DNA of 64,000 nt. Source: a virus. The first letter of the stretch is position 1. Each line of letters starts with the position of its first letter. The position numbers were made by a program, and so were the translations under genes. The notes under the pieces are model-generated. The model did no database searches. It was not told the origin of the DNA and saw only the letters and a program-made list of their open reading frames with translations. The stretch lies in the IMG/VR virus record IMGVR_UViG_3300046170_000505. The stretch is one strand, 5' to 3'. Below, in pieces: positions 5,702 through 45,401 of this stretch.

Positions 5702-5986
5702 ATGAAAGTTTCAGAATTAGAAGTTAAAGAAAGTTTTGATGGCGAACTATATTTTCGCTTACCCGATGACTTGCTAGATAGACTAGGATGGGAAGTTGGT
5801 GATGACTTGAAGTTCATCCCACAAGATGAAGCATTTATTATTAAAAAAGTAAAATATGAAACGATTGAGCTTGACTTTGATAACGAAGAATTGCTAAAAT
5901 ATATGCAGTTCGCACATGAAAAAAATATTACATTTAATGAGCTTTGCGAACAAGCGATAAAAGAAAAAATAAAAGAAAATGAATAA
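5702..5986 (+). CDS. AbrB/MazE-like DNA-binding protein
   Basis: GELYFRLPDDLLDRLGWEVGDDLKF swapped-hairpin motif. Confidence 0.7.
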   Translation: MKVSELEVKESFDGELYFRLPDDLLDRLGWEVGDDLKFIPQDEAFIIKKVKYETIELDFDNEELLKYMQFAHEKNITFNELCEQAIKEKIKENE

Positions 5987-23035: not shown

Positions 23036-23370
23036 TAAATGAGAAGAGGCGACTCATTAAAATAGCCTCAGTATTTTTGTTCTTTAATAGTTTAATTTTT
23101 AATTCTGCAGGCAGATCCTTATTAACCAAAGGGCTCAAACTCTGTCTGTAGAAACACTTTGGAAGGGCTTATAATCCTTCCTGTGGGTGACCGAATAAAC
23201 CTGTGATGAGCGGGTTAAGGTACGCAAATTCCCTGTGGTGGGGTAGCAGAGTCCAATCGGATGAGCTGATGACGAATACCAAGTCTAATTTGTGGTTCGA
23301 AGTAGGAACTCTATGAACTGATGTTCATCCCGAAAAGTTGAGAGTATTCAGTAGTCTCTTCCCACACTAT
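23036..23370 (+). ncRNA. Structured ncRNA of about 330 nt (possibly ROOL-like)
   Basis: ORF-free and richer in GC than its flanks. It has a 5' H-type pseudoknot, several helices with G-U pairs, a long-range TGTGGG/CCCACA pairing, its own promoter and a downstream hairpin. Confidence 0.75.
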
Positions 23371-23665: not shown

Positions 23666-23732
23666 TAAGTCGTTGAATATCAAGCACTTGCGCGAGCCCG
23701 ACCCGCATAAAGCGTTGATTGGCAACAACTTA
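23666..23732. repeat. 67-bp double-palindrome element, copy 1
   Basis: TAAGTCGTTGAATATCAAGCACTTG-17 nt-TAAAGCGTTGATTGGCAACAACTTA. Confidence 0.9.
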
Positions 23733-23798
23733 CAACAAAGTGCATTTTAATTAAACTTTTTTCTTTACAAGGTATGCGTATTGGTCTATATTGTATCT

Positions 23799-24185
23799 AT
23801 GACAGAGAGAAATCCAGGAAACAAAAAGTATAAGATTGACCACAAGAAAAAGGTCTTTGTATACAAGAACCTTCACAAAGATTGTTGGTCAGTCAAGCAA
23901 GACGGACTAGTCAAAGCACACACCGATGAGATTAATCTTTGGGACTGTGCATTTCAAGTAAATGCCAGGGGCAGACAAAAAGTTATTGATGAGCAACGCA
24001 AAAATGTTCACGCGGGCATCAATGGTTACATAGATGAACTTGATCTAGATTTACCTAATCCTGTGGAAGTAACTTACAACCCATACAAGTATGATTCTTT
24101 TGTTGACAAGGCAACCGAGTCTCCTATATACTCTATGGATAACGCAAAACTAACACACAACAAAGTAACAGCATATACAACATGA
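23799..24185 (+). CDS. Conserved phage protein (VYKNLH..CWSV...RKNVHA type), leaderless
   Basis: Start corrected to the ATG 6 nt after TTTACA-17-TATATT. Confidence 0.75.
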   Translation: MTERNPGNKKYKIDHKKKVFVYKNLHKDCWSVKQDGLVKAHTDEINLWDCAFQVNARGRQKVIDEQRKNVHAGINGYIDELDLDLPNPVEVTYNPYKYDSFVDKATESPIYSMDNAKLTHNKVTAYTT

Positions 24186-25940
24186 AATTATTAAAAGACA
24201 TTATAGATAATTGGGGTTTCGTAGACTCCAAGCAACTAAAAGAACTTGTGGAATATTTTCCATCAGTACCATTGGTTATTAAGTGGGGCATGAGAGAAAG
24301 AGAGATTTTCAAGGCTTGCGAAGTATCCAAACGCATAGAGAAAGTTGAGTCCGAATCAGACGACTATGTTCGTGAAGTTTTCATTAACGCAGGAAACTTA
24401 AAAAAGTTAAGAGAAGTATTGGGGGTAAAAGCGTGAAACAACTATTAGTTAAGATACCTATGTCACAATCTATTCAAGAAGTTATTGATTACATTTATTA
24501 TAGCGAGATGGAGGGTAGAGAGGACGAAACAGATTCGTGGTATACCACCTATAAAAGTTTATTAGAGTTAAAAGAAAAAGTATTAGATGAGGAGGATATG
24601 ACATGAGAAGTTGGGAAGAAAGAGACATAGTTGATATATTAAAAGAGCGACATGGCGAATTGAATAAAGCGTCAGTTGAGTTATCCGAAGGTGGCGATCA
24701 TGAAGGCTCAGATGCAATTGATGATGACCTTTTAATTATCGAAGATTTTTTAGAGAAACAATTCAGTGTCAAGTGGTACGGCACACAATTCCTCAGAATA
24801 CCAATCAAAGGATAAACATGAATAAATTAATGGAAGCACACAAAAGAAAACTATCGCCTGAGTCATCAATTGTCGCAGCAATCAATGGAATTGCAGATGA
24901 ACTATATGAGTTGAGAAAAGAGAACAGAGATCTTCAAGGCGAATTAAAAAACATAGCGGGGTCTCTCGATTATGTTAGTCAATACCTCTACGACATTAGT
25001 TGGGAGCTAAAGAAAAACAGAGAAAAAAGTATTGACAAAGAAGTTCAACTAAGTTAGATTTATATTATGACAGAAAAAACAATAGTAGCAGACACACCCG
25101 AAGCGATAGACCGATTCCGATTGGTAGCTCTTAAAGGAGCGTTAAAGATGGAGGTTCTTGGTATGACAAGACGAGGTCAATCAGTCTATTCAATCGTAAA
25201 ACAAGAGTTCGGATTTAAAGGCAACAAGGTATCCGTACTAAAACAACTAGAACAAAAAATTAAGGAGATTATTTAAAATGACTAAAGCACAAATCGAATC
25301 AAGAGTAGAAGGTTGGAATTGGAACATGAACATCTTTGAGATATACGATGAACTCAGAGACGGGCATACGGGAGAACAACAAGAGCAACTTTTAACTTTT
25401 GCTTATAATTATTTCAATAAAGATTCAGCTATCGCAGATTTAGCATGTCACTTCGGCATCACTATTGAAACAGACGAAGACTCACCAATCCCTTGCTAAG
25501 ATGAGAATAGAAGAAAGAATGATAGATTATGCCCAAAAGTGGTATGAAGTAAACGACCTAGAGACAGAGAAAAAGAACGGAAACGATCTTTATCTTCGAG
25601 TCAATGACAATGTATTTACTGAAGTCTCACACTGCGACATCAGACAAAAAGCCATGCTATGGTTAGAATCAGAATTAGAAGGAGTAAACAATTATTAAAA
25701 TGAACAATTACATAGAAGGAGTTTGCATCGGAAGTCCAATTGACTTACCCGAATACGATGAACAAGCAGAGCAATGGAAACTATGGTTTGAAGAGTCCGA
25801 GACCCCATACCACCCATACGACGAATTGCTTAGGGAGAACATTAATTTTCCTGATCTAATTTCTTATAGTTGTGACTCAGCCGAAGAGGCTTGCGAGCTT
25901 TACAACTATTACAACCAAAACCCTGTAACAAAGGACGCCA

Positions 25941-26171
25941 ATGAAACTACTAACTAAAATTCTTAACGCAGTTAAACCAAAGTACAAGCTTGTTTACCGT
26001 ACAGCTAACGGAGCAACTGCAATGTATACAATCACCAAGCCAAAACACAAAGGCGAGTTCGGCAACATGACCGAAGGCAAAGATGTTGTCGGCTTTAAAT
26101 CTTGGTGCTTTAATCGAAATGGATTTAGGTCTTTTCGTTATGATCGCATCGTAAGCCTAATAAAGGGATAA
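25941..26171 (+). CDS. WYL-like small protein
   Basis: C-terminal FRSFRYDRI motif. Confidence 0.45.
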   Translation: MKLLTKILNAVKPKYKLVYRTANGATAMYTITKPKHKGEFGNMTEGKDVVGFKSWCFNRNGFRSFRYDRIVSLIKG

Positions 26172-26341
26172 TTATTATGACACTACAACAAAAACTAAGG
26201 GCTCTCGGGCACCAATTGGCTGAGGCAGAACTATACGGGTTTAACATCCCTCAACCTCTAGACGCGAAGCATTACTACATGCTTAATAAGTTTTACAAAT
26301 TCAAAACTCGCAAATAGCAAATAACCTTTCCTCCACTACTA

Positions 26342-26382
26342 GCCCCGTCTTTGGTTGAGTTATGCCAAGGACGGGGTTTTTT
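26342..26382 (+). terminator. Rho-independent terminator
   Basis: GCCCCGTCTTTGG...CCAAGGACGGGGT stem followed by a T-run. Confidence 0.75.
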
Positions 26383-26383
26383 A

Positions 26384-26450
26384 TAAAGTACTGAGCATCA
26401 ACAACTTACGCGGGCCTGGGCCGCCTAAGCCCTTGATTACCAAGGACTTA
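26384..26450. repeat. 67-bp double-palindrome element, copy 2
   Basis: TAAAGTACTGAGCATCAACAACTTA-CGCGGGCCTGGGCCGCC-TAAGCCCTTGATTACCAAGGACTTA. Confidence 0.9.
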
Positions 26451-26463
26451 GGGGCTTTAAGGG

Positions 26464-26775
26464 TTAAGACCTCTCTAAGCTCATTTGATTGAGGGATTGA
26501 AAGCAGAAAGCGTTACTGGCAGGAGTATCCTCGCCATACTTTTCAGCATAATCAACCCAAGACACGGCAGTCTTTCCATGATCTTTTTCGCACTCAGCTT
26601 TTGCGACTGCTTTGACTGCATCCGCAACTTGTTTTGATCCGAGAATATCGTGACCTTCGGCAAGTGAGAGAATGACTTGACCTACATATCTGTTGAGGTC
26701 TTCTATGCTATATGCATTTTTTCCGATTTTCATTCTTACTGCTGATTCGAGTAGTTCTTGTGGTAGTAGTGACAT
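26464..26775 (-). CDS. Hypothetical protein, single inverted cassette between copies 2 and 3
   Basis: 103-aa ORF with an AAGGA ribosome-binding site; TTGACA on the - strand at 26838-26843. Confidence 0.75.
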   Translation of the reverse strand: MSLLPQELLESAVRMKIGKNAYSIEDLNRYVGQVILSLAEGHDILGSKQVADAVKAVAKAECEKDHGKTAVSWVDYAEKYGEDTPASNAFCFQSLNQMSLERS

Positions 26776-26869
26776 ATTTTTCCTTTTGTTAGTGTTGTTA
26801 TTTAATTATTCCTAATATTAAGGCATATATTAGCCCGTGTCAACGATTTTTTTTATTTTTTTTATTACA

Positions 26870-26936
26870 TAAGTCGCTGCCATTCAACGACTTACAACGC
26901 TTCCCCCCGCGCAAGTCCTTGATATACAAGCACTTA
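26870..26936. repeat. 67-bp double-palindrome element, copy 3 (divergent spacer)
   Basis: TAAGTCGCTGCCATTCAACGACTTA-CAACGCTTCCCCCCGCG-CAAGTCCTTGATATACAAGCACTTA. Confidence 0.85.
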
Positions 26937-27002
26937 CAACAAAAGCACATTTTATTAAACTTTTTTCTTTACAAAGTACAAAAATTAGCTTACTATGTAT
27001 AT

Positions 27003-27122
27003 ATGAAAGTGAGAGAGATAAAGATAAGAAAAACAATCCTTTTTACAAAGGCTCGCCCATTCAAAATGAAGAATAAAATTTTAGACAGAAAAACAAAACA
27101 CAAAAAACAATATGAATATTAA
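27003..27122 (+). CDS. 39-aa highly basic peptide, leaderless
   Basis: ATG 6 nt after TTTACA-17-TACTAT; MKVREIKIRKTILFTKARPFKMKNKILDRKTKHKKQYEY. Confidence 0.6.
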   Translation: MKVREIKIRKTILFTKARPFKMKNKILDRKTKHKKQYEY

Positions 27123-27395
27123 AAAAGAATTCTCTCCCTCAGATCGCCCAAGTGCTATTGATGCTATGGATCATGGCATGAGCTACATTTGGGAAAACTT
27201 TATCGAGCCACGCATCAAAGATGGCGGGATTGAAGAAATTGATCTTGACTTGCTTGCCCAACTAGGTCTTATCTTTAAAGACATTGCAGAAAAAGCCGAG
27301 GCATACTATGCTATGGAAGAAAAAAAGTTTACCGATTCCCATAATTATTTAAATTAACTATTGACAGAAAACCTAAATTATATATTATTAAAGCT

Positions 27396-28271
27396 ATGAA
27401 TAACACAGAAAACAATCAAGTCGTTCCCACTAACAGAGTTAACCTTCACATCATGGGCGGTAATCGTTCTATTGTCGATTACGGAGATGTGGTAAATGTC
27501 GTGACTCCTCCTGTCAGTTACAGAGAGAAGCCAAACAAGAGAACAGGTGAGTTCTCTGTTTCTCATCAACCAATCCCACATCACGATTTAGTGGATCGCA
27601 CTAAGGGGTTTCTAGAAACAGGTGGATTCACTATTCATGACGAGCTTCATTCGCTTGCTCGTGATGGCAACCATTATTTTGGTTTGTTCTCCGTTGATCA
27701 TCCTAATCGCAAACCATCCGAAAGAGGTTGCGTTATTGGTCTACGCAATTCTCACGACAAGACATTTCCTGCGGGTTTGTGTGCAGGTGATGCTCCTTTT
27801 GTTTGTGATAATCTCATCTTTACCAATACCATCAAGTTGTCTCGCAGACATACTTGCAACATTGAGAAAGACCTTAACTTCACTATCAATCGTGCATTGG
27901 GTAAGTTGTTCGATTTTTGGATCGGTCAAGATAATCGCATCGAGGCTTATCAAAACTTTGAGCTTACCAATTCTCAAGCCAATGATCTTATCATCAACGC
28001 TTGTAAAGCAGGTGCTTGTGCAAAGTCTAAGGTAATGGATATTGTGGATCAATGGGAATCTTCCGATCATCCCGAATTTTGGGATCGCAACGCTAATTCC
28101 CTTTACAATGCTTTTACCGAGGTTTACAAAGGTAATCTTGTAGCTTTGCCTAAAAGATCAGAGGCTCTTCATTCTGTTCTTGACTCTGTTGTCGATTTCA
28201 GAATGGACAATTTTTTAACTGCCGAACCCATTGAAAGGGCGGTAGTTGAAGGCGAAATAGTTTCTGTCTAA
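27396..28271 (+). CDS. DUF932/DUF945-family protein
   Basis: PIPH, GLRNSHDK, FVCDNL and RRHT motifs; leaderless TTGACA promoter at 27361. Confidence 0.8.
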   Translation: MNNTENNQVVPTNRVNLHIMGGNRSIVDYGDVVNVVTPPVSYREKPNKRTGEFSVSHQPIPHHDLVDRTKGFLETGGFTIHDELHSLARDGNHYFGLFSVDHPNRKPSERGCVIGLRNSHDKTFPAGLCAGDAPFVCDNLIFTNTIKLSRRHTCNIEKDLNFTINRALGKLFDFWIGQDNRIEAYQNFELTNSQANDLIINACKAGACAKSKVMDIVDQWESSDHPEFWDRNANSLYNAFTEVYKGNLVALPKRSEALHSVLDSVVDFRMDNFLTAEPIERAVVEGEIVSV

Positions 28272-28292
28272 ATAAGGATCAGCCCATCCTTA

Positions 28293-28318
28293 GCCCCCTC
28301 TTCGGAGGGGGTTTTTTT
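28293..28318 (+). terminator. Rho-independent terminator
   Basis: GCCCCCTC-TTCG-GAGGGGGT-TTTTTT. Confidence 0.9.
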
Positions 28319-28335
28319 GTGCCCTTTTATTTACG

Positions 28336-28402
28336 CAACTCGTTGGTAATCAACGACTTGCGCGGGCCAGGCCCGCGTAAGTACTTGCAGTTCAACTACT
28401 TA
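28336..28402. repeat. 67-bp double-palindrome element, copy 4
   Basis: The spacer CGCGGGCC-A-GGCCCGCG is itself a perfect inverted repeat. Confidence 0.9.
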
Positions 28403-28468
28403 CGACAAAGTGCAATTTAATCGATCTTTTTTCTTTACAAGATACTAGTTTTGTGGCATAGTATACTT

Positions 28469-28675
28469 ATGAAAGAAACAGTAAAAGTATTAATGTCCCG
28501 TGATGGTTTAACCCAAGCTGAGGCGGTAAAACAAGTAAAAGATTTCTTTCTTGCAATGCAAGAAGATATCCAAAGCGGAGGAGATCCTTTTTCCTGGGAA
28601 AACGATTTTGTTCAAGAGTTTGGTCTTGAGCCTGACTACTTTGAAGATTTTATTTTTTCGCTTGCAGTTATTTAA
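28469..28675 (+). CDS. Small acidic phage protein (LM.RDG.T..EA...FGLEPDY type), leaderless
   Basis: Start corrected to the ATG 6 nt after TTTACA-17-CATAGT. Confidence 0.7.
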   Translation: MKETVKVLMSRDGLTQAEAVKQVKDFFLAMQEDIQSGGDPFSWENDFVQEFGLEPDYFEDFIFSLAVI

Positions 28676-28696
28676 CAATTCAACTATTATTCTTTT

Positions 28697-29434
28697 ATGA
28701 TTAAGCAAACATTACTCACTTCAGGCAACGCTAAAATTACTAAGGGCGAAGCATTCGGATATTTAACAAAAGGCATTCATTTAGCTCCCGCCAATTTGTC
28801 AGGCTACGAAGTTTGCCGTTGGCGTTCAAAAGGTTGCACTATGGCTTGTCTCAACACGGCAGGTCGTGGACAAATGAATTCCGTTCAAGATTCACGCATT
28901 GCTAAGACAAAGTTATTCTTTGAGCAAAGATTTGACTTTCTTTCAAAACTATCAAAAGAAATTACTTCCACGATAAAGTCAGCAAGCAAAAAGAGCTTGC
29001 AAGCGGTGTTTCGTCCTAACCTTACAAGCGATATCGCATGGGAAGATATTGTCAATGAAGATGGAGTGAATTTGTTTGAGAAGCATAACTCAATTCAATT
29101 TTATGATTATACTAAATCATTTAAGAGAATGTGTTCTTTCCTTAACAAACCTTTCATTAAGGGTGAGTCAAAGTTTCCTTCAAATTATCACTTAACTTTT
29201 TCTTGCTCAGAACATAACGAAGAAAAATGCAAAATGGTTCTTTCAATGGGTGGCAATGTCGCTGTAGTCTTTCGCAACGAATTACCTAAAACTTGGAACG
29301 GGTACGAGGTTGTCAATGGTGATGAATCGGACTTGCGTTTCCTAGACAAAAAAGGTGTCGTTGTTGGGCTTATCGAAAAAGGTCTTGCTAAAAAAGACTT
29401 GACGGGATTCGTTAAAGAAGGTATAAATTCATAA
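28697..29434 (+). CDS. GP88-like phage protein (Cys-cluster enzyme-like)
   Basis: C....GC...CL..AGRG, R.N.TSDI.WE, FYDYTK, NYHLTFS and GD..DLRFLD motifs. Confidence 0.75.
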   Translation: MIKQTLLTSGNAKITKGEAFGYLTKGIHLAPANLSGYEVCRWRSKGCTMACLNTAGRGQMNSVQDSRIAKTKLFFEQRFDFLSKLSKEITSTIKSASKKSLQAVFRPNLTSDIAWEDIVNEDGVNLFEKHNSIQFYDYTKSFKRMCSFLNKPFIKGESKFPSNYHLTFSCSEHNEEKCKMVLSMGGNVAVVFRNELPKTWNGYEVVNGDESDLRFLDKKGVVVGLIEKGLAKKDLTGFVKEGINS

Positions 29435-29684
29435 TGGACTATTACGATTCAGCCGAAAACATTGGGATAACGCAAGATCGTGCTTTGCAAGAATTAGCAA
29501 GCCACGGGATTACATCTAACGAGGATATTATAGAATTCTTCAAGGATATGGGTGAGCATGAAGAATATGATGCTCAAGAAGTTTTGATTTGGTTAGGGTA
29601 TTAATTGCCCATTTTTAACGCGGGCATCAAATACGCAAAACTTTTCGCCCAGGCTAGCCCCAGGAAGAAAAACTTTTAACCCCG

Positions 29685-29751
29685 TAAGTCGCTGACTGTC
29701 AACGACTTGCGCGGGCCTAGGCCGCGTAAGTGCCTGATATACAACAACTTG
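29685..29751. repeat. 67-bp double-palindrome element, copy 5
   Basis: Same 25-17-25 architecture. Confidence 0.9.
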
Positions 29752-29817
29752 TGACAATCTGCAAAAAAACTTAACTTTTTTCTTTACATGATAGGTTATT
29801 TATGCGATATTATAACC

Positions 29818-30024
29818 ATGAAACATACAGGAAACTCAATCAGAAAAGTCATTAAACAACTGAAGAAATGCGTGGACATCACAAGCATTCAAAGAACTGC
29901 AAACGGATATATGATCTGTGCCAAGAATGGCGAACAGAATCTTATCCATGAAGGCTCAAACTGCTACCACCCACTTCGCAGATGGCTCAAAACTAACACA
30001 TCACTAAAAACACTAAAATTCTAA
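29818..30024 (+). CDS. Small basic protein (possibly HicA-like fold), leaderless
   Basis: Start corrected to the ATG after TTTACA-17-GATATT; the fold call is tentative. Confidence 0.55.
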   Translation: MKHTGNSIRKVIKQLKKCVDITSIQRTANGYMICAKNGEQNLIHEGSNCYHPLRRWLKTNTSLKTLKF

Positions 30025-30207
30025 TGATTACTATATCTCGCAACCAAAACTTCAGGGAATGGCTAAACATCACAATGTTCGGCAAACTCGTGGACAATGT
30101 AAAAAGCTCGGCACGAGCATATCATGTCGCCCAAAGGCTTCAAATTGAACATAAACAAAAAACTGGAGAAAAAGTCATAATCATTCAAAAAAATTAAATT
30201 TATATAT

Positions 30208-30310
30208 GTCCCCGCGTTCTATTTGATCTGCAAATCAGAGGAGATGAGAGAAATTTAGATTGCAGTCTTAATTAAACTCTTGCAGGTTCGACTCCTGCCG
30301 CGACAGGGAC
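30208..30310 (+). ncRNA. tRNA-like element or degenerate tRNA
   Basis: Perfect T-arm GCAGG-TTCGACT-CCTGC and a closing GTCCC/GGGAC + CGCG/CGCG stem; no D-arm and no CCA. Confidence 0.45.
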
Positions 30311-30320
30311 ACGCCTTTAG

Positions 30321-30387
30321 TAAGTCTTTGGTAACCAACGACTTACGCGGGCCTGGACCGCCTAAGTACTTGATAGTCAACAACTTA
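30321..30387. repeat. 67-bp double-palindrome element, copy 6
   Basis: Same 25-17-25 architecture. Confidence 0.9.
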
Positions 30388-30495
30388 CAAAAAAGTGCGT
30401 TTTTATTGTATTTTTTTCTTGCAACTTTTTATAAATTACCTTATTGTCTTATACATGATCAGGTTTATCTAAATTAACTTAAAAACATATATAAC

Positions 30496-31494
30496 ATGAA
30501 AGTACAAACTACAAACAAAACTAAAAAAGCATCAAAACTATCTTTTGCTAGAAAACTTGGCAGATCAAAAGCTAAGATGGCTACAAAGTTAAGTGAAAGC
30601 GAAAAGATTGAGACTCAAGACTTTTTTGAAGAAAACTTCGTGAAAGATGATTACGAGTATTTACCCGTAACCTTTACTAGTGAAGATTTACCTTTGATAG
30701 AATACATGAAGTCTTCAGAGATAAACTCCAATAACAGACAAAAGGTTGCGGATAATGTTGCAAGATTATTTCGTTGTCTTAAAGCGGGCATATGGTATCA
30801 AGAAAATCTAGATATCCATGTAGCTAAAGAAGGTCACTTAATGAATGGACAACACACATTAGAGGCTGTAGCTCAATTTTTCTTGGATGCAAACACACCA
30901 AGTGGTTCTGAAGTACCAATCGGATTTAAGATTGGTTGCAATGAAGATGCAATGCCTTATTTGGACACCCAAAAGAAAAGAACCCCTGAGCAAAACCTTA
31001 TGATCGAAAATGTTTTACTTAACCCTACTCAAAAAGCTATTGTTTTAATTGAGGGAAAAAGAGTTATACATGGTAAGCCTTTTGGTTATAGTGGTCAAGT
31101 CAATTACTTTGAGTACGAAGATATCATTGAAGACAATAAAAGCATATTAACGGATGTCTTTAAAGACAGAGTCTTATCTAGAGATTTCCCACATAAATCT
31201 ATAGGCTATGCTTTGTTCTTGCTTGCAAAAGAGAATCAAGAATTAGCAGAAGATATCATGAATGAGATTTGTGATTCTCATAGCATGGAAAACAGGGGAA
31301 AGTCTTTCGCTGATCCAAAACAACTCGAAGAGCATTTGTTAGTCGAAATGTACAGAAGAGAAAAAAGGGATAAAATAGACACAATGAGTAGCAAGACTAA
31401 CAGAGATTGCTACCGCCAAGAAGAATTCTTTCCTATTGCGGTTGATTGGTTAGTCTCAAACCATAACATTGACAGAAAGGTTTTCAAAGCATGA
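30496..31494 (+). CDS. ParB/DGQHR-like N-terminal domain protein
   Basis: NNR...V......L..G.W....I.....G.LMNGQHTL.A motif. Confidence 0.55.
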   Translation: MKVQTTNKTKKASKLSFARKLGRSKAKMATKLSESEKIETQDFFEENFVKDDYEYLPVTFTSEDLPLIEYMKSSEINSNNRQKVADNVARLFRCLKAGIWYQENLDIHVAKEGHLMNGQHTLEAVAQFFLDANTPSGSEVPIGFKIGCNEDAMPYLDTQKKRTPEQNLMIENVLLNPTQKAIVLIEGKRVIHGKPFGYSGQVNYFEYEDIIEDNKSILTDVFKDRVLSRDFPHKSIGYALFLLAKENQELAEDIMNEICDSHSMENRGKSFADPKQLEEHLLVEMYRREKRDKIDTMSSKTNRDCYRQEEFFPIAVDWLVSNHNIDRKVFKA

Positions 31495-31836
31495 GCCACT
31501 ACATAAAGAAAGCAATTAACTCGTATCAAGAGCTAGCGTTCTACATTGGTAAGACTAGGTTATGCCCAATAACCCAAAGGGCTAATCCAAAGAATCAATC
31601 AGTATCTGACTTTGCAAAAAATGGTCAAATGTATTGGAAAACTATAATGCACATTGATGACCATAAATTGCATCCTGAGTTCGGGGAGTCATTCTTAATT
31701 AATTGTTTTAGAGATAAACTTAGCCACTTAGTCTTACTCAACAAAGACATACCTCACGCTATGGCATTAGTTTATGACAAAAAATCAGAGTCGCTCATAG
31801 ATAAGCTTTTTAAAGAGTTATCTTAACTTAATCGCG

Positions 31837-31903
31837 TAAGTCATTGATAGTCAGTGGCTTACGCGGGCCAGGGCCGCGTAAGTACTTGCGGGTCAACAAC
31901 TTA
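31837..31903. repeat. 67-bp double-palindrome element, copy 7
   Basis: Same 25-17-25 architecture. Confidence 0.9.
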
Positions 31904-31969
31904 CAACATAATGTAAAAAAACTTAACTTTTTTCTTGCGTTAATTAACTACATATGCGATAGTATTATC

Positions 31970-32332
31970 ATGATAGCAAAACAACAATTACTTAACTTCG
32001 ACAATCTCGCTTTCCATACTCATCCTTCTTGCGACAACGCAGTTATGGCTCAACTAAACATGGGCGACATAACTATTTCAGTTGTAGCAAACATTGCTAA
32101 TGGGGATAGTCTTTATGGTCATCTTGACGATGACGAGTACGAAGTTGCAATGTGGAAAAAAGGAAGTGCAGACATGATTCCTCTTGGTGTTGGAGACGAT
32201 GTCCTTGCAAGGCAAACTCCCGCTCAAGTCAGCAAGCTCATGAGAGACGCTCAACTTGACGGAGATGCTTGGGTTGATCTTCTCAGAAAGTTAAGAAAAG
32301 ACTTTCGTGACGACTTAGGACTTGACGACTAA
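31970..32332 (+). CDS. Conserved phage protein (ISVV...SLYG....YEVAM type), leaderless
   Basis: Start corrected to the ATG after TTGCGT-17-GATAGT; the longer N-terminus in the track translates the repeat. Confidence 0.7.
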   Translation: MIAKQQLLNFDNLAFHTHPSCDNAVMAQLNMGDITISVVANIANGDSLYGHLDDDEYEVAMWKKGSADMIPLGVGDDVLARQTPAQVSKLMRDAQLDGDAWVDLLRKLRKDFRDDLGLDD

Positions 32333-32968
32333 TCACAACTAAACTATATTACTATTATGACAGAAGAACAAAGAATCGCCATTATTAAAAACGCAGTCCT
32401 TGCTAGTCAAGGTTTCCAAAGTGCATCTGTTGACGAATTTGTTGCAGAAGTAAAAACGGAAGATATTGTCACTAGGCATGGATTACTTGATGCCCAAAAA
32501 GAAGATGTAGAAGATGAGAAGCAATTTCTTAACTCTGATTCAGCAGAAGACATCGAAGAAGAAGATCAAGACATGGGTGTTGTCAGCGATCAAATGAAAG
32601 GAGTCTACCAATCATGAGTTGGGATATTATATTATTCTTGCCTTGGCTTTTTGTTTTTTACATCATGTGGGAGGACTTAAAACATGGATGATCCTTTTTT
32701 TATAGCTACTACAATCGGTGGCAATAGTATGTTCGCTCTTATGGAAGTCGAAGGTAACGAAAAACCAAGACAAGGCGAACACAAGATTTCTGAATCTTGC
32801 TTAGAAGCAAACTTAGCCACGGGCAGATTCACCGATATAACAGAACAAGCGACAGGTGCATACGGCAAGCTATATGTCTTGACAGAAGAAATGCCTCAAG
32901 AATAAATAATAAATAAACAAATAGCAAATAATAATATAGCCCGCGATCTTCGATTTTTTAGTTTCTCG

Positions 32969-33035
32969 TAAGTCGTTGATATTCAACGACTTGCGCGGGC
33001 CTGGCCGCCCTAAGTGCTTGGCACTCAAGGACTTA
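32969..33035. repeat. 67-bp double-palindrome element, copy 8 (where + and - gene blocks converge)
   Basis: TAAGTCGTTGATATTCAACGACTTG-17 nt-TAAGTGCTTGGCACTCAAGGACTTA. Confidence 0.9.
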
Positions 33036-33040
33036 CGCGA

Positions 33041-33373
33041 TTAAATGAGATCGTAGTATTGTGGAGAGGTATCGACCTTATGGCTTATGGTGTCAATCTC
33101 CAATTCCACTCCAGCGAGCTGTTTCTTAGCTTCGTCTATTAATTCTTTTGGAGGGATTATTGGAAATCCATTTTTGCCCCATGCTTCCACCGATTCGATT
33201 TGGTCAAAGTATCCGACGATATGAGTTTCTGAAACTTGATCGCCATAAAGGGATTCGGTCTCATCTCTCCAAAAAGAGCAGGTCAGGATCATCTCAGAGA
33301 TTTCAGCGTTATCAATCGAAACGAAGAAAAGATCTTCGCTTGTATCTATATCATCAATGTTTATTTTATTCAT
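33041..33373 (-). CDS. Acidic hypothetical protein, cassette gene
   Basis: Stop codon 5 nt from copy 8; TTGACA on the - strand at 33402-33407. Confidence 0.7.
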   Translation of the reverse strand: MNKINIDDIDTSEDLFFVSIDNAEISEMILTCSFWRDETESLYGDQVSETHIVGYFDQIESVEAWGKNGFPIIPPKELIDEAKKQLAGVELEIDTISHKVDTSPQYYDLI

Positions 33374-33437
33374 ACCTTAATATCGCTTATATTTTGGCTT
33401 ATGTCAAACTTTTTGTTTGTTATTTTGAAAGTTTACA

Positions 33438-33504
33438 TAAACTATTGATATTCAACGACTTACGCGGGCCTGGCCGCCATAAGCGGCTGATAGCCAAAGA
33501 CTTA
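33438..33504. repeat. 67-bp double-palindrome element, copy 9
   Basis: Its terminal TTA is the TAA stop of ORF 33502..33738. Confidence 0.9.
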
Positions 33505-33738
33505 CGACAAATCCATTACAAGCTCGTCTAATCGTGGGTAGTCAAGCCCACTATCATTCCAGGCTACCCCATCAGGAGTTTGATAGCCTATTGAGCTATC
33601 ACCTGAAACCTCTCTTAACGAGTCAACAAAGACATCGTAAGAAGTGCAGTCTTTAGCAAAGCTGTAAAGACCTTCGTCGTTTTGTATCCATAATGCCACG
33701 TTCCAGGTGGCTCGATTTTTCCAGCCGTTATAGCTCAT
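33502..33738 (-). CDS. Conserved phage protein (YNGW.N.ATWNVALWI.NDE type)
   Basis: Characteristic N-terminal motif. Confidence 0.75.
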   Translation of the reverse strand: MSYNGWKNRATWNVALWIQNDEGLYSFAKDCTSYDVFVDSLREVSGDSSIGYQTPDGVAWNDSGLDYPRLDELVMDLS

Positions 33739-33864
33739 AGTTTCGAGGTGTTGTGCCCCGCCTTCCTCATAGAGTGAAGGGCTTCAGGGCGAGTCATATT
33801 GAATCGGGACATAAGATACATAAGCAAGTCATGACCCGTGAGTTGTTGATTTCTGTCTGTCATA

Positions 33865-34050
33865 TTAAGCGAATGCAAGCCAAAGAGCAAGGGCGTCGAT
33901 TTGCTCTTGAACGAGTTCCTTTTCTTGTTCTGCGTTGATGATTAGTTGTTGAGAGCGAATGCAACCTTCGTTTGCGATATCAGACTCTAGGTCGATAATT
34001 TGCTGAAGCTCGTTAATTCTGTCGAATAGGTTTCTAATTTTTTCTTTCAT
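33865..34050 (-). CDS. Small coiled-coil protein, leaderless
   Basis: TTTACA-17-TACTTT-6-ATG on the - strand. Confidence 0.65.
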   Translation of the reverse strand: MKEKIRNLFDRINELQQIIDLESDIANEGCIRSQQLIINAEQEKELVQEQIDALALWLAFA

Positions 34051-34177
34051 AAGTATAAAGTACCATAGTAAGTAAAGCTTGTAAAGTAAATTCGCACTTT
34101 TTTTGCAATTAATTGAAATACGGGCAAATAAGTTTTACCCCAGGCGGGCATCGATGCACAAAACTTTTAGTTTTTTG

Positions 34178-34244
34178 TAAGTCATTGCGTATCAACGACT
34201 TACGCGGGCCTGGGCCGCCTAAGCGGCTGATATTCAACGAGTTA
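34178..34244. repeat. 67-bp double-palindrome element, copy 10
   Basis: Contains the TGA stop of ORF 34234..34434. Confidence 0.9.
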
Positions 34245-34434
34245 GGGAATCTTTTTCGAAAGCGTCAATCATTTGACTCCACTCCCAGAGGTTGCCGTCT
34301 GGATCTTCGTAAAAGCTATACCCAGATTTGGCGTGAGTCAGGATGTGCGAAAATCCTATATTTTCCGCCCAGGCCTGAAAGTCAGCGTCGCGTTTTTCTT
34401 CGTCTAATTGGTCTTGTGTTATTGTTATCTTCAT
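34234..34434 (-). CDS. Small acidic protein, leaderless cassette gene
   Basis: TTGACT-17-TACATT-5-ATG. Confidence 0.7.
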   Translation of the reverse strand: MKITITQDQLDEEKRDADFQAWAENIGFSHILTHAKSGYSFYEDPDGNLWEWSQMIDAFEKDSLTR

Positions 34435-34496
34435 ACCCTAATGTACCTCTATCCTGGGCGAAAGTCAAGAAAAGATTTTACTTTTTTATCTTTCCG

Positions 34497-34563
34497 TAAA
34501 CCCTTGCGTATCAACGACTTACGCGGGCTTGGGCTCCATAAGCCCTTGATTGTCAAGAACTTA
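34497..34563. repeat. 67-bp double-palindrome element, copy 11
   Basis: Contains the TGA stop of the ORF ending at 34553. Confidence 0.9.
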
Positions 34564-34753
34564 GGGGAACAAACACATCGGGCTTACGATCCTCTGGCAA
34601 TGGCCAGCCTTTGAATTCCTCGCCATCGAGGTCTTCGAGCCTGAACATGATGCCCTCGAGCATTTCCTCAAGCTGAGCATTTTTTTTCTCCAGATCAACG
34701 ATCCTGCTGAGCAGGAGCTGACTCGTGTGTGTGTATATTTTATTTTCTATCAT
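34553..34753 (-). CDS. Small hypothetical protein, leaderless cassette gene
   Basis: Start corrected to 34753: TTGACT-17-TACTAT-6-ATG. Confidence 0.65.
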   Translation of the reverse strand: MIENKIYTHTSQLLLSRIVDLEKKNAQLEEMLEGIMFRLEDLDGEEFKGWPLPEDRKPDVFVPLSS

Positions 34754-34818
34754 ACCCTTATAGTACGACAGAATTTTGCTCAAGTCAAACTTTTTTTGAA
34801 TTATTTTGCAAGTTTTTC

Positions 34819-34885
34819 TAAGCCGTTGTGTATCAACGACTTACGCGGGCCTGGCCGCCATAAGCGGCTGATACTCAACGACTTA
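34819..34885. repeat. 67-bp double-palindrome element, copy 12
   Basis: Same 25-17-25 architecture. Confidence 0.9.
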
Positions 34886-34887
34886 TG

Positions 34888-35127
34888 CTAAAAGTCGTAT
34901 TGGTCATGATAGCCATAGTCATAATCCTGATATCGGTCAAAGCTGGGCTCTTCATGGTTACGGTGTACTTCTGACATCTCAGCAGGCTCGTCGCTATTCC
35001 TGACATCAGTGAGTATTTTCTCAAGACGAGCAAGACGGGCAAGCTCTTTTTCACGAGCTTCAAACTCGACATCAGTGATGCCGTTGGCGTGGGCGAGGCG
35101 AGTGAGAGAATCATTTTCATTTTCCAT
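34888..35127 (-). CDS. Small acidic protein, leaderless cassette gene
   Basis: TTGACA-17-TATGTT-6-ATG supports this frame over 34875..35162. Confidence 0.7.
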   Translation of the reverse strand: MENENDSLTRLAHANGITDVEFEAREKELARLARLEKILTDVRNSDEPAEMSEVHRNHEEPSFDRYQDYDYGYHDQYDF

Positions 35128-35237
35128 ATATATAACATAAAGGCATTGCTAACCTGTGTCAAATCAATTCAACAATAAACGAAATTGGACCAAATAAAAG
35201 GCTTGCGGGCCTCAGCTTAGACATACGATATTTTTCG

Positions 35238-35304
35238 TAAGTCATTGTATATCAACGACTTACGCGGGCCTGGCCGCTATAAGCGGCTGATAGTCAACGA
35301 CTTA
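35238..35304. repeat. 67-bp double-palindrome element, copy 13
   Basis: Its terminal TTA is the stop of ORF 35302..35454. Confidence 0.9.
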
Positions 35305-35454
35305 TGACTTTATTATTCGATATCGCCTTACGCGACCACTATAGGCAAGGCGGGCTTTAAGTAAAGCTTCAGCCTCACGCTTAAACATCGGAACTGTTTC
35401 GGCTACCCATCCGATCTTAGAAGAAAAGGGGATTGATTCTAGTATGTATTTCAT
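35302..35454 (-). CDS. 50-aa hypothetical protein (absent from the ORF track)
   Basis: MKYILESIPFSSKIGWVAETVPMFKREAEALLKARLAYSGRVRRYRIIKS; follows 35459..35653. Confidence 0.55.
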   Translation of the reverse strand: MKYILESIPFSSKIGWVAETVPMFKREAEALLKARLAYSGRVRRYRIIKS

Positions 35455-35458
35455 TTTA

Positions 35459-35653
35459 TTAGTCAACTAAGATTAAAGGTTTGGGTAGTGGAGTGTGGGC
35501 GAGATAAGCCTCCAACTCATTAACCTCCGATTGTGCTATCCTATCAAGATCGGCTTGAGCCGCGACGCACTGCATCATAGCTGAACCTGAGCCATTACTT
35601 GCGGCTTCTAGGTTGTCATTAATTATTTGTTGTAATCTTTGTTTTTCTGTCAT
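35459..35653 (-). CDS. Small hypothetical protein, leaderless
   Basis: TTGCAA-17-TAGTTT-6-ATG. Confidence 0.65.
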   Translation of the reverse strand: MTEKQRLQQIINDNLEAASNGSGSAMMQCVAAQADLDRIAQSEVNELEAYLAHTPLPKPLILVD

Positions 35654-35719
35654 AAGTATAAACTAAGGGAATTTTTGTTGAATTGCAATCTTTTTTTTCA
35701 ACTATTTTGCAGGTTTTCT

Positions 35720-35786
35720 TAAGCCGTTGCGTACCAACGACTTACGCGGGCCTGGCCGCCATAAGCGGCTGATAGTCAACGACTTA
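35720..35786. repeat. 67-bp double-palindrome element, copy 14
   Basis: Its terminal TTA is the stop of ORF 35784..36098. Confidence 0.9.
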
Positions 35787-36098
35787 GAAGATTAAAGGTA
35801 AGTCATTGTTTGCGTGTGACATGACGCAAAACCAATCGCTTGGATTTATTGCGTTGCCGTTAAGCATGGGTACGAAGTCTTTTTGATATACCCCCAAGCC
35901 TGTTATGCCGTTGACTCTTTCCCTAGTGGTAGGGGTATTCCAACCTGCAAGCGAAGCTTTAATTAACCCGCTAGAGTCACGCTTCACAATGGCGTTGCCA
36001 TGTAGCCAAACGGTTTGCCCGTCTGTCTCGGTGTTGCCGACTTTTTTAGATTTGCCTTGTTCAAAGGCTTGTTTAATTTGTTGTGTCACTTTTCTCAT
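35784..36098 (-). CDS. Conserved phage protein (MRK.T....AF..G....GNT...LHGN.I...T.TT.ER.N type)
   Basis: Characteristic motif pattern. Confidence 0.7.
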   Translation of the reverse strand: MRKVTQQIKQAFEQGKSKKVGNTETDGQTVWLHGNAIVKRDSSGLIKASLAGWNTPTTRERVNGITGLGVYQKDFVPMLNGNAINPSDWFCVMSHANNDLPLIF

Positions 36099-36152
36099 GT
36101 TATTTGTTTGCGTAAATGGTTGCGATTATTATTCCTATGATTAAGGATGTGA

Positions 36153-36497
36153 TCATGGATGCACCCCATGGTCTAAGAGTTGAACTGCCTCGTAAACCGA
36201 GCATTTGAGATCATCGCAGATATCTGCGAGTTTTTCCTCTCTTGCTTCGGCACGAGATTGACGATAACGGGTTACCTTGCAAAAGCGAGGATCTGCCTCT
36301 GCACCTGCCATCTCTTTAAGTTCGGAGAAAAGATCCCAAGAAACAATTCCTTGTTTGCAAAAGTTGTATGCACACTGCTTGCGTGATACCCCCTGAATGT
36401 CGAAGATGTGCCGTGCCATCTTATCGTTGAAAACGCTCAAGCTCGCTTGAATCAGCTTGTCTGAGATTTTTGAGAATGTTATATGTATTAGTTTCAT
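36153..36497 (-). CDS. Hypothetical protein, leaderless
   Basis: TTGACA-17-GATAGT-6-ATG. Confidence 0.65.
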   Translation of the reverse strand: MKLIHITFSKISDKLIQASLSVFNDKMARHIFDIQGVSRKQCAYNFCKQGIVSWDLFSELKEMAGAEADPRFCKVTRYRQSRAEAREEKLADICDDLKCSVYEAVQLLDHGVHP

Positions 36498-36573
36498 AAT
36501 TATACTATCGCATATGCAGTGCCTTCTGTCAAGCTATTTGAAAATTTTCTTTGAATTATTTTGCTTATTTCTG

Positions 36574-36640
36574 TAAGTTGTTGTTTATCAACGACTTACG
36601 CAGGCCAGGCTCGCCTAACCCCTTGACTATCAAGGATTTA
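36574..36640. repeat. 67-bp double-palindrome element, copy 15
   Basis: TAAGTTGTTGTTTATCAACGACTTA-CGCAGGCCAGGCTCGCC-TAACCCCTTGACTATCAAGGATTTA. Confidence 0.85.
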
Positions 36641-37183: not shown

Positions 37184-37990
37184 ATGAAAGAACTAGATTT
37201 CAGTCAAGCTATAATCCAAAGATTGCAAGATCAAATTGGTAACGAAAAAGAAATAACGATAGAAGCCTGGGCTGCCGAAGAAAAAAGCGGCAAAAAGCTT
37301 AACAAACCATTTAGAACTCCAGGTGGGCCTAAAAAGTTTTCTGTTTATGTAAAAAACGAAAAAGGCAACGTTGTAAAAGTAAGCTTCGGGGATCCGAACA
37401 TGTCAATTAAACGCGATGACCCTGCTCGTCGTAAAAGTTTTCGCGCTAGACACGGCTGCGATAACCCTGGGCCAAAAACTAAAGCTAAATATTGGAGCTG
37501 CAAGATGTGGAGCAAAAAGAGTGTCACCAAAATGACCAAAGGTGAAGAGTCTTCGTTTGAAGAAGCAGAAGAAGAAATGGTTGCTTTCTTGGATGAATCT
37601 GAAAGCAAAAAAGGGTTATGGGAAAATATCCGCGACAAAAAGAAAAGAGAGGGCAAAAACTACAAACCTGCAAAACCAGGCGACAAAGATTATCCAGACC
37701 CTAAAGCTCTAAAGAAAGCTCAAAAATCTTCAGAAGAAAAAAAATCAAAAGCTGATAAAAAAGAAGAAAAAAAAGACGGTGAATCAGGCTTAACAGACGA
37801 GCAGAAAAAACTTCCTGATTTTATTAAAAAGAACTTGCTTAAGAAAAAGAAAGCAAAAGCTGAAGACAAAGAAGACAAAGACGACAGCGGTTTAACCGAC
37901 AAACAAAAGAAACTTCCCGACTTTATTAAAAAAAATTTAAAAAACAAAAAAAAGACAGACAAAAAAGAAGGCAAAGAAGAAAAGAAGTAA
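37184..37990 (+). CDS. Conserved basic phage protein (virion/DNA-associated candidate)
   Basis: KKFSVYVK...V.FGDP...RRKSFRARH.C...YWSC..W domain, GLW.NI..KK motif and a duplicated SGLTD.QKKLPDFIKKNL. Confidence 0.7.
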   Translation: MKELDFSQAIIQRLQDQIGNEKEITIEAWAAEEKSGKKLNKPFRTPGGPKKFSVYVKNEKGNVVKVSFGDPNMSIKRDDPARRKSFRARHGCDNPGPKTKAKYWSCKMWSKKSVTKMTKGEESSFEEAEEEMVAFLDESESKKGLWENIRDKKKREGKNYKPAKPGDKDYPDPKALKKAQKSSEEKKSKADKKEEKKDGESGLTDEQKKLPDFIKKNLLKKKKAKAEDKEDKDDSGLTDKQKKLPDFIKKNLKNKKKTDKKEGKEEKK

Positions 37991-44380: not shown

Positions 44381-44695
44381 ATGCAATTTATATACTGTAC
44401 TGAATGCGGCTCGAAGAACGTTTATTCTGGATCGAAGCCTAAATTTTGCTCTTCTTGCGGTCACCCTATGGGTACAACAAGTTCTACAAAAAATAATAAT
44501 TTAAATAAAGAAGCTATCGTGCAAACAAAAGCTTCATTGGCGGAAAATGAAACGGATATCGATTATGTGCCATCAATAAGCTCGTTACAATACGAAATTA
44601 GTGATGACGGGACCCTAGGTAGTAAGACAATTAACGTCGGAGACATATTTAATGCCCAGGAAGCCAGCCAAAAAAGAAGACGCCCCTCAAGGTAA
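44381..44695 (+). CDS. Zinc-ribbon protein
   Basis: CTECG...KFCSSCG. Confidence 0.7.
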   Translation: MQFIYCTECGSKNVYSGSKPKFCSSCGHPMGTTSSTKNNNLNKEAIVQTKASLAENETDIDYVPSISSLQYEISDDGTLGSKTINVGDIFNAQEASQKRRRPSR

Positions 44696-45401
44696 TAAAT
44701 TAAAATACGAGGACTTCTCCGACTTAATAGATCAAGAATTAAGGAAAAGGAGCAGGAATTGGTTTTTAACCTCTGTTAATTGGGTTGACTTTGATGATGT
44801 GTCTCAAATAATTAGGGCTCACATAAATAATAAATGGCATCAATGGGATCAATCTAGACCAATTAAACCATGGCTTAATAAAATAATAGCCAATCAAATG
44901 AAAAACATCTTGCGTAATCATTACAGTAATTACGCCAGACCCTGCTTAAATTGTCCATTCAATTCAGACGTAGAATACAATCTCTGTAGCTTTACTGAAA
45001 GCGGTACACAAGACAAAACTTGCCCGCTTTACGCTAAATGGGAATCTTCTAAAAAACACGCTTATAATGTTAAAATAACACTTCACCTGGATAGCCACAT
45101 TCACGAAGTCGATCAAGGGTCTGAACATTTCTTGGGGTCTGACATAGCTTTAGCTTCAGAAAAATTATTTAAAGAAATGGAGAACGTTCTTAACGAAAGA
45201 CAATATAAAGCATTTAAAATGTTATATATAGAAAACAAAACAGACGAAGAAGTAGCTCATGAAATGGGCTTTAAAAGCACGGAGTCTGGAAGAAAAGCAG
45301 GTTATAAACAAATAAAGAACTTAAGAAAGATGCTAAAAGATAAAGCGGCAAAAATATTAAAAAACAAAGGAATAACCTTTTTAGGCGATGAATCTAACTG
45401 A
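44652..45401 (+). CDS. Phage ECF-like RNA polymerase sigma factor
   Basis: Region 2-like DDVSQ......KW..WD..R....WL..I..N...N..R and region 4 HTH L.ERQ......Y......EEVA.EMG, with a Cys-rich insert between them. Confidence 0.75.
   Translation: MPRKPAKKEDAPQGNKLKYEDFSDLIDQELRKRSRNWFLTSVNWVDFDDVSQIIRAHINNKWHQWDQSRPIKPWLNKIIANQMKNILRNHYSNYARPCLNCPFNSDVEYNLCSFTESGTQDKTCPLYAKWESSKKHAYNVKITLHLDSHIHEVDQGSEHFLGSDIALASEKLFKEMENVLNERQYKAFKMLYIENKTDEEVAHEMGFKSTESGRKAGYKQIKNLRKMLKDKAAKILKNKGITFLGDESN

Follow-up and report, generated by a model that had tools for sequence, protein, structure and literature searches.

A 67-bp double-palindrome element with IHF-consensus half-sites at gene-cassette junctions of an uncultured marine phage

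Locus and element

The stretch analysed here is IMG/VR virus record IMGVR_UViG_3300046170_000505 (64 kb in full, hereafter the window), DNA of an uncultured large marine phage with a T4-type terminase N-domain, a tail-fibre chaperone and PhoH. One 13-kb accessory region of small genes carries 15 copies of a 67-bp element. In the element two 25-bp palindromes flank a 17-bp GC-rich spacer, with zero indels in 15 of 15 copies. All copies are intergenic, with 1 to 11 open reading frames (ORFs) between neighbours. Genes run rightward at 23.7–32.9 kb and leftward at 33.0–37.0 kb. The palindromes fit the consensus of the integration host factor (IHF), and the element may be a cassette boundary read by a host DNA-bending protein.

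Copies were located by a repeat finder, by direct reading and by a profile search, and the three methods are concordant. They recover the 15 starts and the 25-17-25 bp architecture claimed in an earlier note made from the letters alone (the sequence-only reading). That reading had seen no copy elsewhere in the window, which holds: a profile built from the 15 copies matches the same 15 places only (E<1e-3). A degenerate palindrome pattern returns 15 pairs at exactly 42 bp and 10 unpaired chance matches (3 mismatches). No Rfam family corresponds to the 67-bp element. Nucleotide searches of a cultured-phage collection, with the whole region and with a single element, give no match. No close cultured relative of the window phage was found; uncultured viral contigs give many relatives.

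Promoters and terminators

Six copies are followed, exactly 31 nt downstream, by a T4-early-type promoter (TTTACA or TTGCAA, 17 nt, TAnnnT). In the leftward block the promoter is on the opposite side of the element, at 28–31, 41 or 75 nt, and the stop codon of the upstream gene lies inside the element end. Promoters of the form TTTACA/TTGACA-N17-TAnnnT are present 26–41 nt from 12 of the 15 copies (three of these as -35 boxes read by eye); for copy 13 the distance is 75 nt. Repeat family D3 spans element and promoter; repeat family D4 spans promoter and element. Canonical terminators lie directly upstream of copies 2 and 4 (Table 1).

The distance to the promoter follows the helical repeat. 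In the marine clade to which the window belongs, gaps from element to -35 box peak at 30–31, 39–41 and 47–50 nt (R=0.31 at about 10.5 bp; random control R=0.03), with a nominal p=5e-7 that overstates independence since the copies are mutually related.

A second, element-free promoter cassette is present at 25032–25089 and 32322–32379, where a 58-nt repeat holds a consensus promoter and gene start (ATGACAGAA...). Copy 6 is preceded at 15 nt by a tRNA 3'-fragment (T-arm and acceptor 3' strand; 30281–30305, +), which ARAGORN does not call as a tRNA and which could be an att-type remnant. The spacers of the 15 elements hold 22 of the 25 GGCC and 16 of the 18 GGNCC words of the array region. CCGG is absent throughout the 64 kb, and GGCC, CCWGG and GGNCC are absent from 1–22600. 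Restriction-type words avoided elsewhere in the window are concentrated in the elements.

Table 1. Coordinates of the element copies and of associated features, in the window unless an accession is given; a point in the strand column stands for no strand.
Feature	Coordinates	Strand	Remarks
Element copy 1	23666..23732	.	Rightward promoter begins 31 nt beyond
Element copy 2	26384..26450	.	Convergent junction, adjacent promoter absent; abuts canonical terminator 26341-26378
Element copy 3	26870..26936	.	Flanked by divergent promoters: leftward -35 at 26 nt, rightward -35 at 31 nt
Element copy 4	28336..28402	.	Terminator 28292-28313 upstream; rightward promoter 31 nt downstream; spacer a perfect palindrome
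Element copy 5	29685..29751	.	Rightward promoter 31 nt downstream
Element copy 6	30321..30387	.	Preceded by tRNA 3'-fragment; TTGCAA -35 box 31 nt downstream (read by eye)
Element copy 7	31837..31903	.	TTGCGT -35 box 31 nt downstream (read by eye)
Element copy 8	32969..33035	.	Convergent switch from + genes to - genes; adjacent promoter absent
Element copy 9	33438..33504	.	End holds stop codon of gene 33502-33738 (-); leftward promoter at 30 nt
Element copy 10	34178..34244	.	Overlaps stop of gene 34234-34434 (-); no clear adjacent promoter
Element copy 11	34497..34563	.	Leftward promoter at 28 nt
Element copy 12	34819..34885	.	Leftward promoter at 30 nt
Element copy 13	35238..35304	.	Leftward promoter at 75 nt
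Element copy 14	35720..35786	.	Leftward TTGCAA -35 box at 31 nt (read by eye)
Element copy 15	36574..36640	.	Last copy of the array; leftward promoter at 41 nt
T4-early-type sigma-70 promoter TTTACA-17-TATATT	23764..23792	+	Recurs at 26968-26996, 28434-28462, 29783-29811
Leftward sigma-70-type promoter TTGACA-17-GATATT	33379..33407	-	Similar at 26815-26843, 34440-34468, 34760-34788, 35134-35162, 36504-36532
Weak MazE/AbrB-like match	5702-5986	+	20.3 bits; 94-aa early protein
Paired 13-mers of phage DLP6, examples	KU682439.2 45311-45347, 74440-74476, 84009-84045		

Conservation pattern

Conservation was measured on an alignment of 98 diverse 67-bp copies. The blocks TAA, TTG, CAA and TTA are near-invariant. 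Central arm positions are unpaired in 22–57% of copies, and compensatory changes are few. The palindromes are conserved by sequence, not by base pairing. A single long hairpin was considered and rejected: pairing across the two palindromes has fewer compensatory changes than local pairing, and three local dyads fit better.

The two arms are unequal, the CAACGACTTA arm being better conserved than its partner. This polarity is the same for both palindromes of an element in 210 of the 261 cases that are informative. Within arrays, element polarity is mostly constant regardless of gene direction (13 of the 15 copies agree in the window). The - strand folds better in 14 of 15 copies. This bias is mostly due to the G/T-rich conserved arm, which tolerates transitions, and is discounted as evidence of selection for a strand-specific hairpin.

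Fit to IHF-type sites

The conserved arm with its preceding bases forms the 13-mer AATCAACGACTTA, which matches the IHF consensus WATCAANNNNTTR. Strict matches to WATCAANNNNTTR occur in 16 of the 30 palindromes; these are 16 of the 26 in the whole window and fall within 1,005 bp of elements. The core TCAANNNNTTR is present in 26 of the 30, and matches are enriched about 100-fold over the rest of the window. Variation at palindrome positions 8/18 and 1/25 is almost exclusively between A and G (in the sense of the motif), and these are the two R positions of WATCAR...TTR. In IHF complexes the TTR lies 6 bp from the nearest kink, and about 9 bp separate the distortions (PMC5829579). The palindrome likewise has 9 bp between its TT and AA steps, with TTA blocks 6 bp outside them on both sides.

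Consensus, variable positions and kink geometry agree, so the resemblance to IHF noted in the sequence-only reading extends to a fit of the palindromes to IHF/HU-type (DNABII) sites. Each palindrome looks like a symmetrised IHF site, two inverted 13-mer halves back to back, which would also suit a homodimeric HU-like protein. A DNABII protein is therefore the candidate that we infer to bind the palindromes. No DNABII protein (PF00216) is present in the complete 200-kb relative G001.

Distribution in relatives and cassette reshuffling

The element is present in many viral contigs of a deep clade of uncultured phages, with TerL identity down to 37%. In G001 it occurs only at 179.7–189 kb, syntenic with the array of the window. 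The array is limited to one syntenic region in the window and in G001 and G006–G009; distant clade members (TerL 37–57% identical) also have a local array near the terminase. A 268-aa protein (37184–37990, +) borders the array in several relatives. Its N-terminal part is conserved and basic, and its lysine-rich tail has two copies of a repeat of about 22 residues.

The palindrome-to-palindrome period is constant per contig and depends on the lineage. Periods of 42 bp (115 elements), 50 (95), 41 (36) and 52 (26) prevail, with fewer at 49, 53, 40 and 48. The fixed 25-17-25 length thus stands within the window genome and fails in relatives, where lengths differ. The sequence-only reading had proposed a phased array with palindromes four helical turns (42 bp) apart, and had named variable spacing in relatives as the finding that would count against it. 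Spacing does vary, at 40, 41 and 48–53 bp in other lineages and 25 bp in Stenotrophomonas phage DLP6 (below). Since periods differ between lineages, the four-turn rule is a lineage trait and not a defining one. Three palindromes in a row (site-spacer-site-spacer-site) are found in some relatives (L243:2679–2787 and L087:4827–4935), the unit being extensible by one period. Phage-like arrays of double elements also occur in L243, L237 and L238, contigs binned as Enterobacterales, Rhodobacteraceae and Bdellovibrionota metagenome-assembled genomes (MAGs); these are weak host hints.

The cassette genes are shared patchily. Content, order and orientation were compared between relatives and found different, in agreement with the earlier suggestion of a modular region reshuffled in the manner of the promoter-early stem-loops (PeSLs) of T4-type phages. 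The 27396/26919 unit is permuted in contig L114 with respect to L113 and the window. In most relatives the homolog of 33502 lies beside that of 25067 and has the opposite orientation. ORFs 30496 and 31491 occur in the window genome only. Nucleotide similarity between relatives is confined to conserved gene cores, and the ends of BLAST homology blocks are weakly enriched at elements (17% vs 11% expected).

The 13-mer in Stenotrophomonas phage DLP6

DLP6 was found through a full-text search for the 10-mer (PMC5349666). Its authors had reported 'phage promoters in groups of two' from the repeat finder PHIRE (Peters et al. 2017, PMC5349666); IHF is not considered in that paper. The genome has 24 exact 10-mer copies, vs 0.3 by chance, 21 of them on the + strand. 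The 13-mers form tandem direct pairs with a 25-bp period, non-palindromic and spread over about 100 kb. Each pair is followed by a GC hairpin and then by a TTTAC-N16/17-TATAAT promoter. The gap from motif to -35 box is 11–12, 21–22 or 32 nt (Rayleigh R=0.96 at a 10.5-bp period). Read from the sequence, what was described as 'paired promoters' in DLP6 are IHF-consensus 13-mers in tandem, each pair lying upstream of a PeSL-like hairpin/promoter unit.

DLP6 shares with the marine clade the identical core 13-mer AATCAACGACTTA, its pairing, its place upstream of a promoter of TTTAC/TATAAT type with a GC hairpin, and helically quantised distances. It differs in that its copies are direct repeats, dispersed and co-oriented with genes. 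G001 and DLP6 have in common only RNR, PhoH and tail-fibre pieces, and no regulator shared by the two was found. A pre-existing host factor is therefore favoured, the 13-mer being shared and G001 lacking a DNABII protein of its own. A shared phage-encoded reader of the 13-mer appears unlikely.

Proposed function

The 67-bp unit is proposed to be a boundary and promoter-upstream DNA module that is bound by a host IHF/HU-type protein and also supplies homology for recombination, that is, an elaborated PeSL. This proposal is given about an even chance of being right. It builds on what is directly observed: anatomy, conservation pattern, consensus fit, periodic promoter distance, cassette reshuffling and absence of phage-encoded candidate proteins. 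A host DNABII protein, either IHF or a homodimer resembling HU, would bind each 25-bp palindrome as a symmetrised site with two inverted TCAA-N4-TTR half-sites, flexible TT/AA steps 9 bp apart and TTR blocks 6 bp outside. Two bound proteins would produce two sharp bends 42 bp apart. The stiff GC-rich dyad spacer would separate the bends, as the counterpart of the G-run/C-run stem-loop of PeSLs. The folded complex would keep to one face of the helix, upstream of T4-early-type sigma-70 promoters at 30–31 nt or one to three turns further, on either side. Most likely it would set the geometry of upstream DNA for RNA polymerase. It would probably also insulate neighbouring strong transcription units by blocking read-through, supercoil diffusion or silencer spreading; the effect on transcription would be stimulation or insulation. 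Because the same 67–100 bp recurs at each junction, the element could provide a foothold for homologous recombination, by which cassettes would be gained, lost, moved and flipped.

Several observations weigh against this proposal. In the better-conserved arm even the N4 is conserved, as CGAC; the IHF consensus does not call for this, which could mean that another protein reads the site instead or as well. At loop position 14 the A of WATCAA is poorly conserved (0.2 bits). The A-tract of IHF sites is replaced by GC-rich flanks, and the non-consensus side bears a second, inverted consensus half. The two-site spacing keeps no common phase from lineage to lineage. Covariation in the spacer dyad is genuine (31–37: GC 55, CG 29; 32–36: CG 49, GC 18, UA 17), and a purely 'stiff linker' role leaves it unaccounted for. 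The mostly fixed polarity is not accounted for either. Four consensus promoters lie inside cassettes without an element (24103, 25032, 27361 and 32322), and the elements at 26384 and 32969, between convergent genes, have no adjacent promoter. Clade-wide, a recognisable sigma-70 promoter is found on 22% of element sides vs 14% at random positions.

A wider claim is offered tentatively and is rather doubtful. The 13-mer AATCAACGACTTA might be a short code read by a host DNA-bending protein and serve as portable early-gene punctuation in unrelated phage lineages (the marine clade and the T4-like DLP6). Rigid site pairs might then fold cassette junctions at genome entry, set promoter geometry, insulate units, shield the restriction-type words of the spacer and supply seams for exchange. 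If a host architectural protein reads the sites, the layout and protection of the first-expressed accessory (probably anti-defence) genes would be linked with their exchange as ready-to-run units. That would also give a sequence rule for locating early-gene cassette regions in uncultured phage genomes. The 'paired promoters' of DLP6 would be reinterpreted and, with DLP6 and its Stenotrophomonas host in culture, could be tested at the bench.

Alternative explanations

The palindromes might instead be operators of a sequence-specific regulator, either encoded by the phage, for instance a small early protein turning early promoters off or up, or a host factor outside DNABII. The lineage-specific dyad spacer could then be a second, co-evolving operator. 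This is unlikely. It would suit the CGAC core of one arm, the covariation of the spacer dyad by lineage and the helical period of the promoter distance, and the window does encode a weakly MazE/AbrB-like protein (Table 1). This ORF and a 'ParB-like' ORF at 30496 had been put forward as cognate binders in the sequence-only reading, and neither can be retained. The first is below the Pfam cut-off and was found in only 2 of the 17 related or motif-bearing records searched, and is absent from the complete element-bearing genome G009. For the second, Pfam gives no ParB hit, and the other array-bearing loci contain no homolog. The 13-mer is common to G001 and DLP6, but no common regulator was found. 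The inner blocks are 7 bp apart (centre to centre) and the outer blocks 22 bp, which is unusual for helix-turn-helix dimers.

Action in RNA is less probable still. Three consecutive hairpins at the 3' end of a transcription unit would be a terminator, an attenuator, an RNase processing site or a 3' stabiliser. The element is transcribed in the - strand block, because stop codons lie within it there. Fold energies are -15 to -36 kcal/mol, the spacer stem covaries, 86% of arm positions pair when G-U is counted on the strand with the conserved arm 5', and the stem-loops of PeSLs terminate transcription (PMC2839356). However, none of the three dyads is followed by a U-tract or T-run, whichever strand is read. 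The canonical terminators just upstream would leave copies 2 and 4 untranscribed, and one copy has divergent promoters on its two sides. Conservation is of specific bases, central arm positions being unpaired in about half of the copies; the strand bias of fold energy follows from the G/T-rich conserved arm; and the DLP6 motif is not a hairpin. The helical quantisation of the gap to the -35 box is a property of DNA and not of RNA, and therefore speaks against action at the RNA level.

Sites of a dedicated recombination or mobility system, whether like integron attC, like repetitive extragenic palindromes (REPs) with their REP-associated tyrosine transposase (RAYT), or like miniature inverted-repeat transposable elements (MITEs), are very improbable. 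Imperfect palindromes do bound cassette arrays, most elements keep one polarity irrespective of gene direction, relatives differ by moved and inverted cassettes, and a tRNA 3'-fragment lies beside copy 6. Nevertheless, G001 has no tyrosine recombinase (PF00589), serine recombinase or Y1 transposase (PF01797), and the integron-like and RAYT-like readings were rejected for lack of integrase, resolvase and Y1 transposase in that genome. Cassettes lie on both strands with promoters of their own, the array is at one syntenic 9–13 kb locus and not dispersed, and no target-site duplication is seen.

Hardly credible is a role for the whole DNA molecule, for example in pausing or stopping polar genome entry once a first segment is inside, or in replication or packaging: the array does begin about 1 kb after a 22.6-kb stretch free of GGCC and CCWGG and its polarity relative to the genome backbone is mostly fixed, but 15 signals across 13 kb are unexpected for a stop signal, and promoter-linked helical phasing with the dispersed DLP6 layout favours a function at promoter level.

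Comparison with known systems

The nearest known systems are the PeSLs (Arbiol et al. 2010, PMC2839356; Comeau et al. 2014, PMC4122927), for which terminator activity and mini-circles have been shown by experiment (PMC2839356; PMC4122927). The present element and the PeSLs alike are composite repeats between small accessory genes of a hyperplastic region. Each combines a stem-loop of the G-run/loop/C-run kind with an A/T-rich stretch and a sigma-70-like early promoter (TTTACW-N17-TAYWAT type), and each marks the seams at which cassettes are gained, lost and exchanged. In the present element the GC stem-loop does not adjoin the -35 box but is enclosed by two IHF-like palindromes of 25 bp, within a unit of constant length. 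This unit serves promoters on either side, also occupies convergent junctions, is conserved in sequence across a deep clade and is known from sequence alone. PeSLs belong to T4-type phages, whereas the window phage is not T4-like, as the few genes shared by G001 with the T4-superfamily DLP6 indicate.

IHF sites are known in lambda attP (H'), at phage Mu Pe, at lambda pL and in bacterial interspersed mosaic elements (BIMEs) of E. coli that contain IHF sites (repetitive IHF-binding palindromic elements, RIPs). The likeness lies in the WATCAR-N4-TTR consensus, the positions of the kink steps and the location upstream of phage early promoters; with BIME/RIP repeats it lies in the placing of an IHF site within an extragenic palindromic repeat. 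Known sites lack symmetry, one side having the consensus and the other an A-tract, whereas here the consensus is on both sides, the flanks are GC-rich and the sites form rigid pairs.

Integron attC sites likewise are imperfect palindromes of constant polarity that delimit gene cassettes. They differ from the phage array, which has no integrase (PF00589 in G001), in that the cassettes here are not promoterless and co-oriented and conservation is of sequence, not of folded structure. REP/BIME-RAYT systems and MITEs differ in the absence of PF01797 and the restriction of copies to one locus. Intrinsic terminators differ in the T-run, which follows no dyad of the element on either strand. Operator arrays of ParB/KorB type differ in that no ParB-family protein accompanies the sites.

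Occurrence of the palindrome in bacterial genomes

The perfect 25-bp palindrome is present in 45 stretches of bacterial genomes from many phyla (L232–L276). These matches are discounted as support for a universal host factor because terminator hairpins are abundant and tens of chance hits to one 10-bp stem are plausible, the scan being without a control. Several sites lie 3–14 nt downstream of tRNA or transfer-messenger RNA (tmRNA) genes, and one lies beside an integrase (L246). Others lie upstream of a multi-copy IS4-type transposase in a Verrucomicrobiae chromosome and upstream of argS in three Akkermansia species. In Treponema MAGs the palindrome occurs many times.

Other features of the window

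A conserved 249-aa protein (44652–45401, +) gives a weak match to sigma-70 region 2 (21.6 bits). A manA RNA motif (Rfam RF01745, 81 bits, E=1e-19) is present at 23161–23370 (+), about 300 bp before the first element, and is conserved at the nucleotide level in several relatives.

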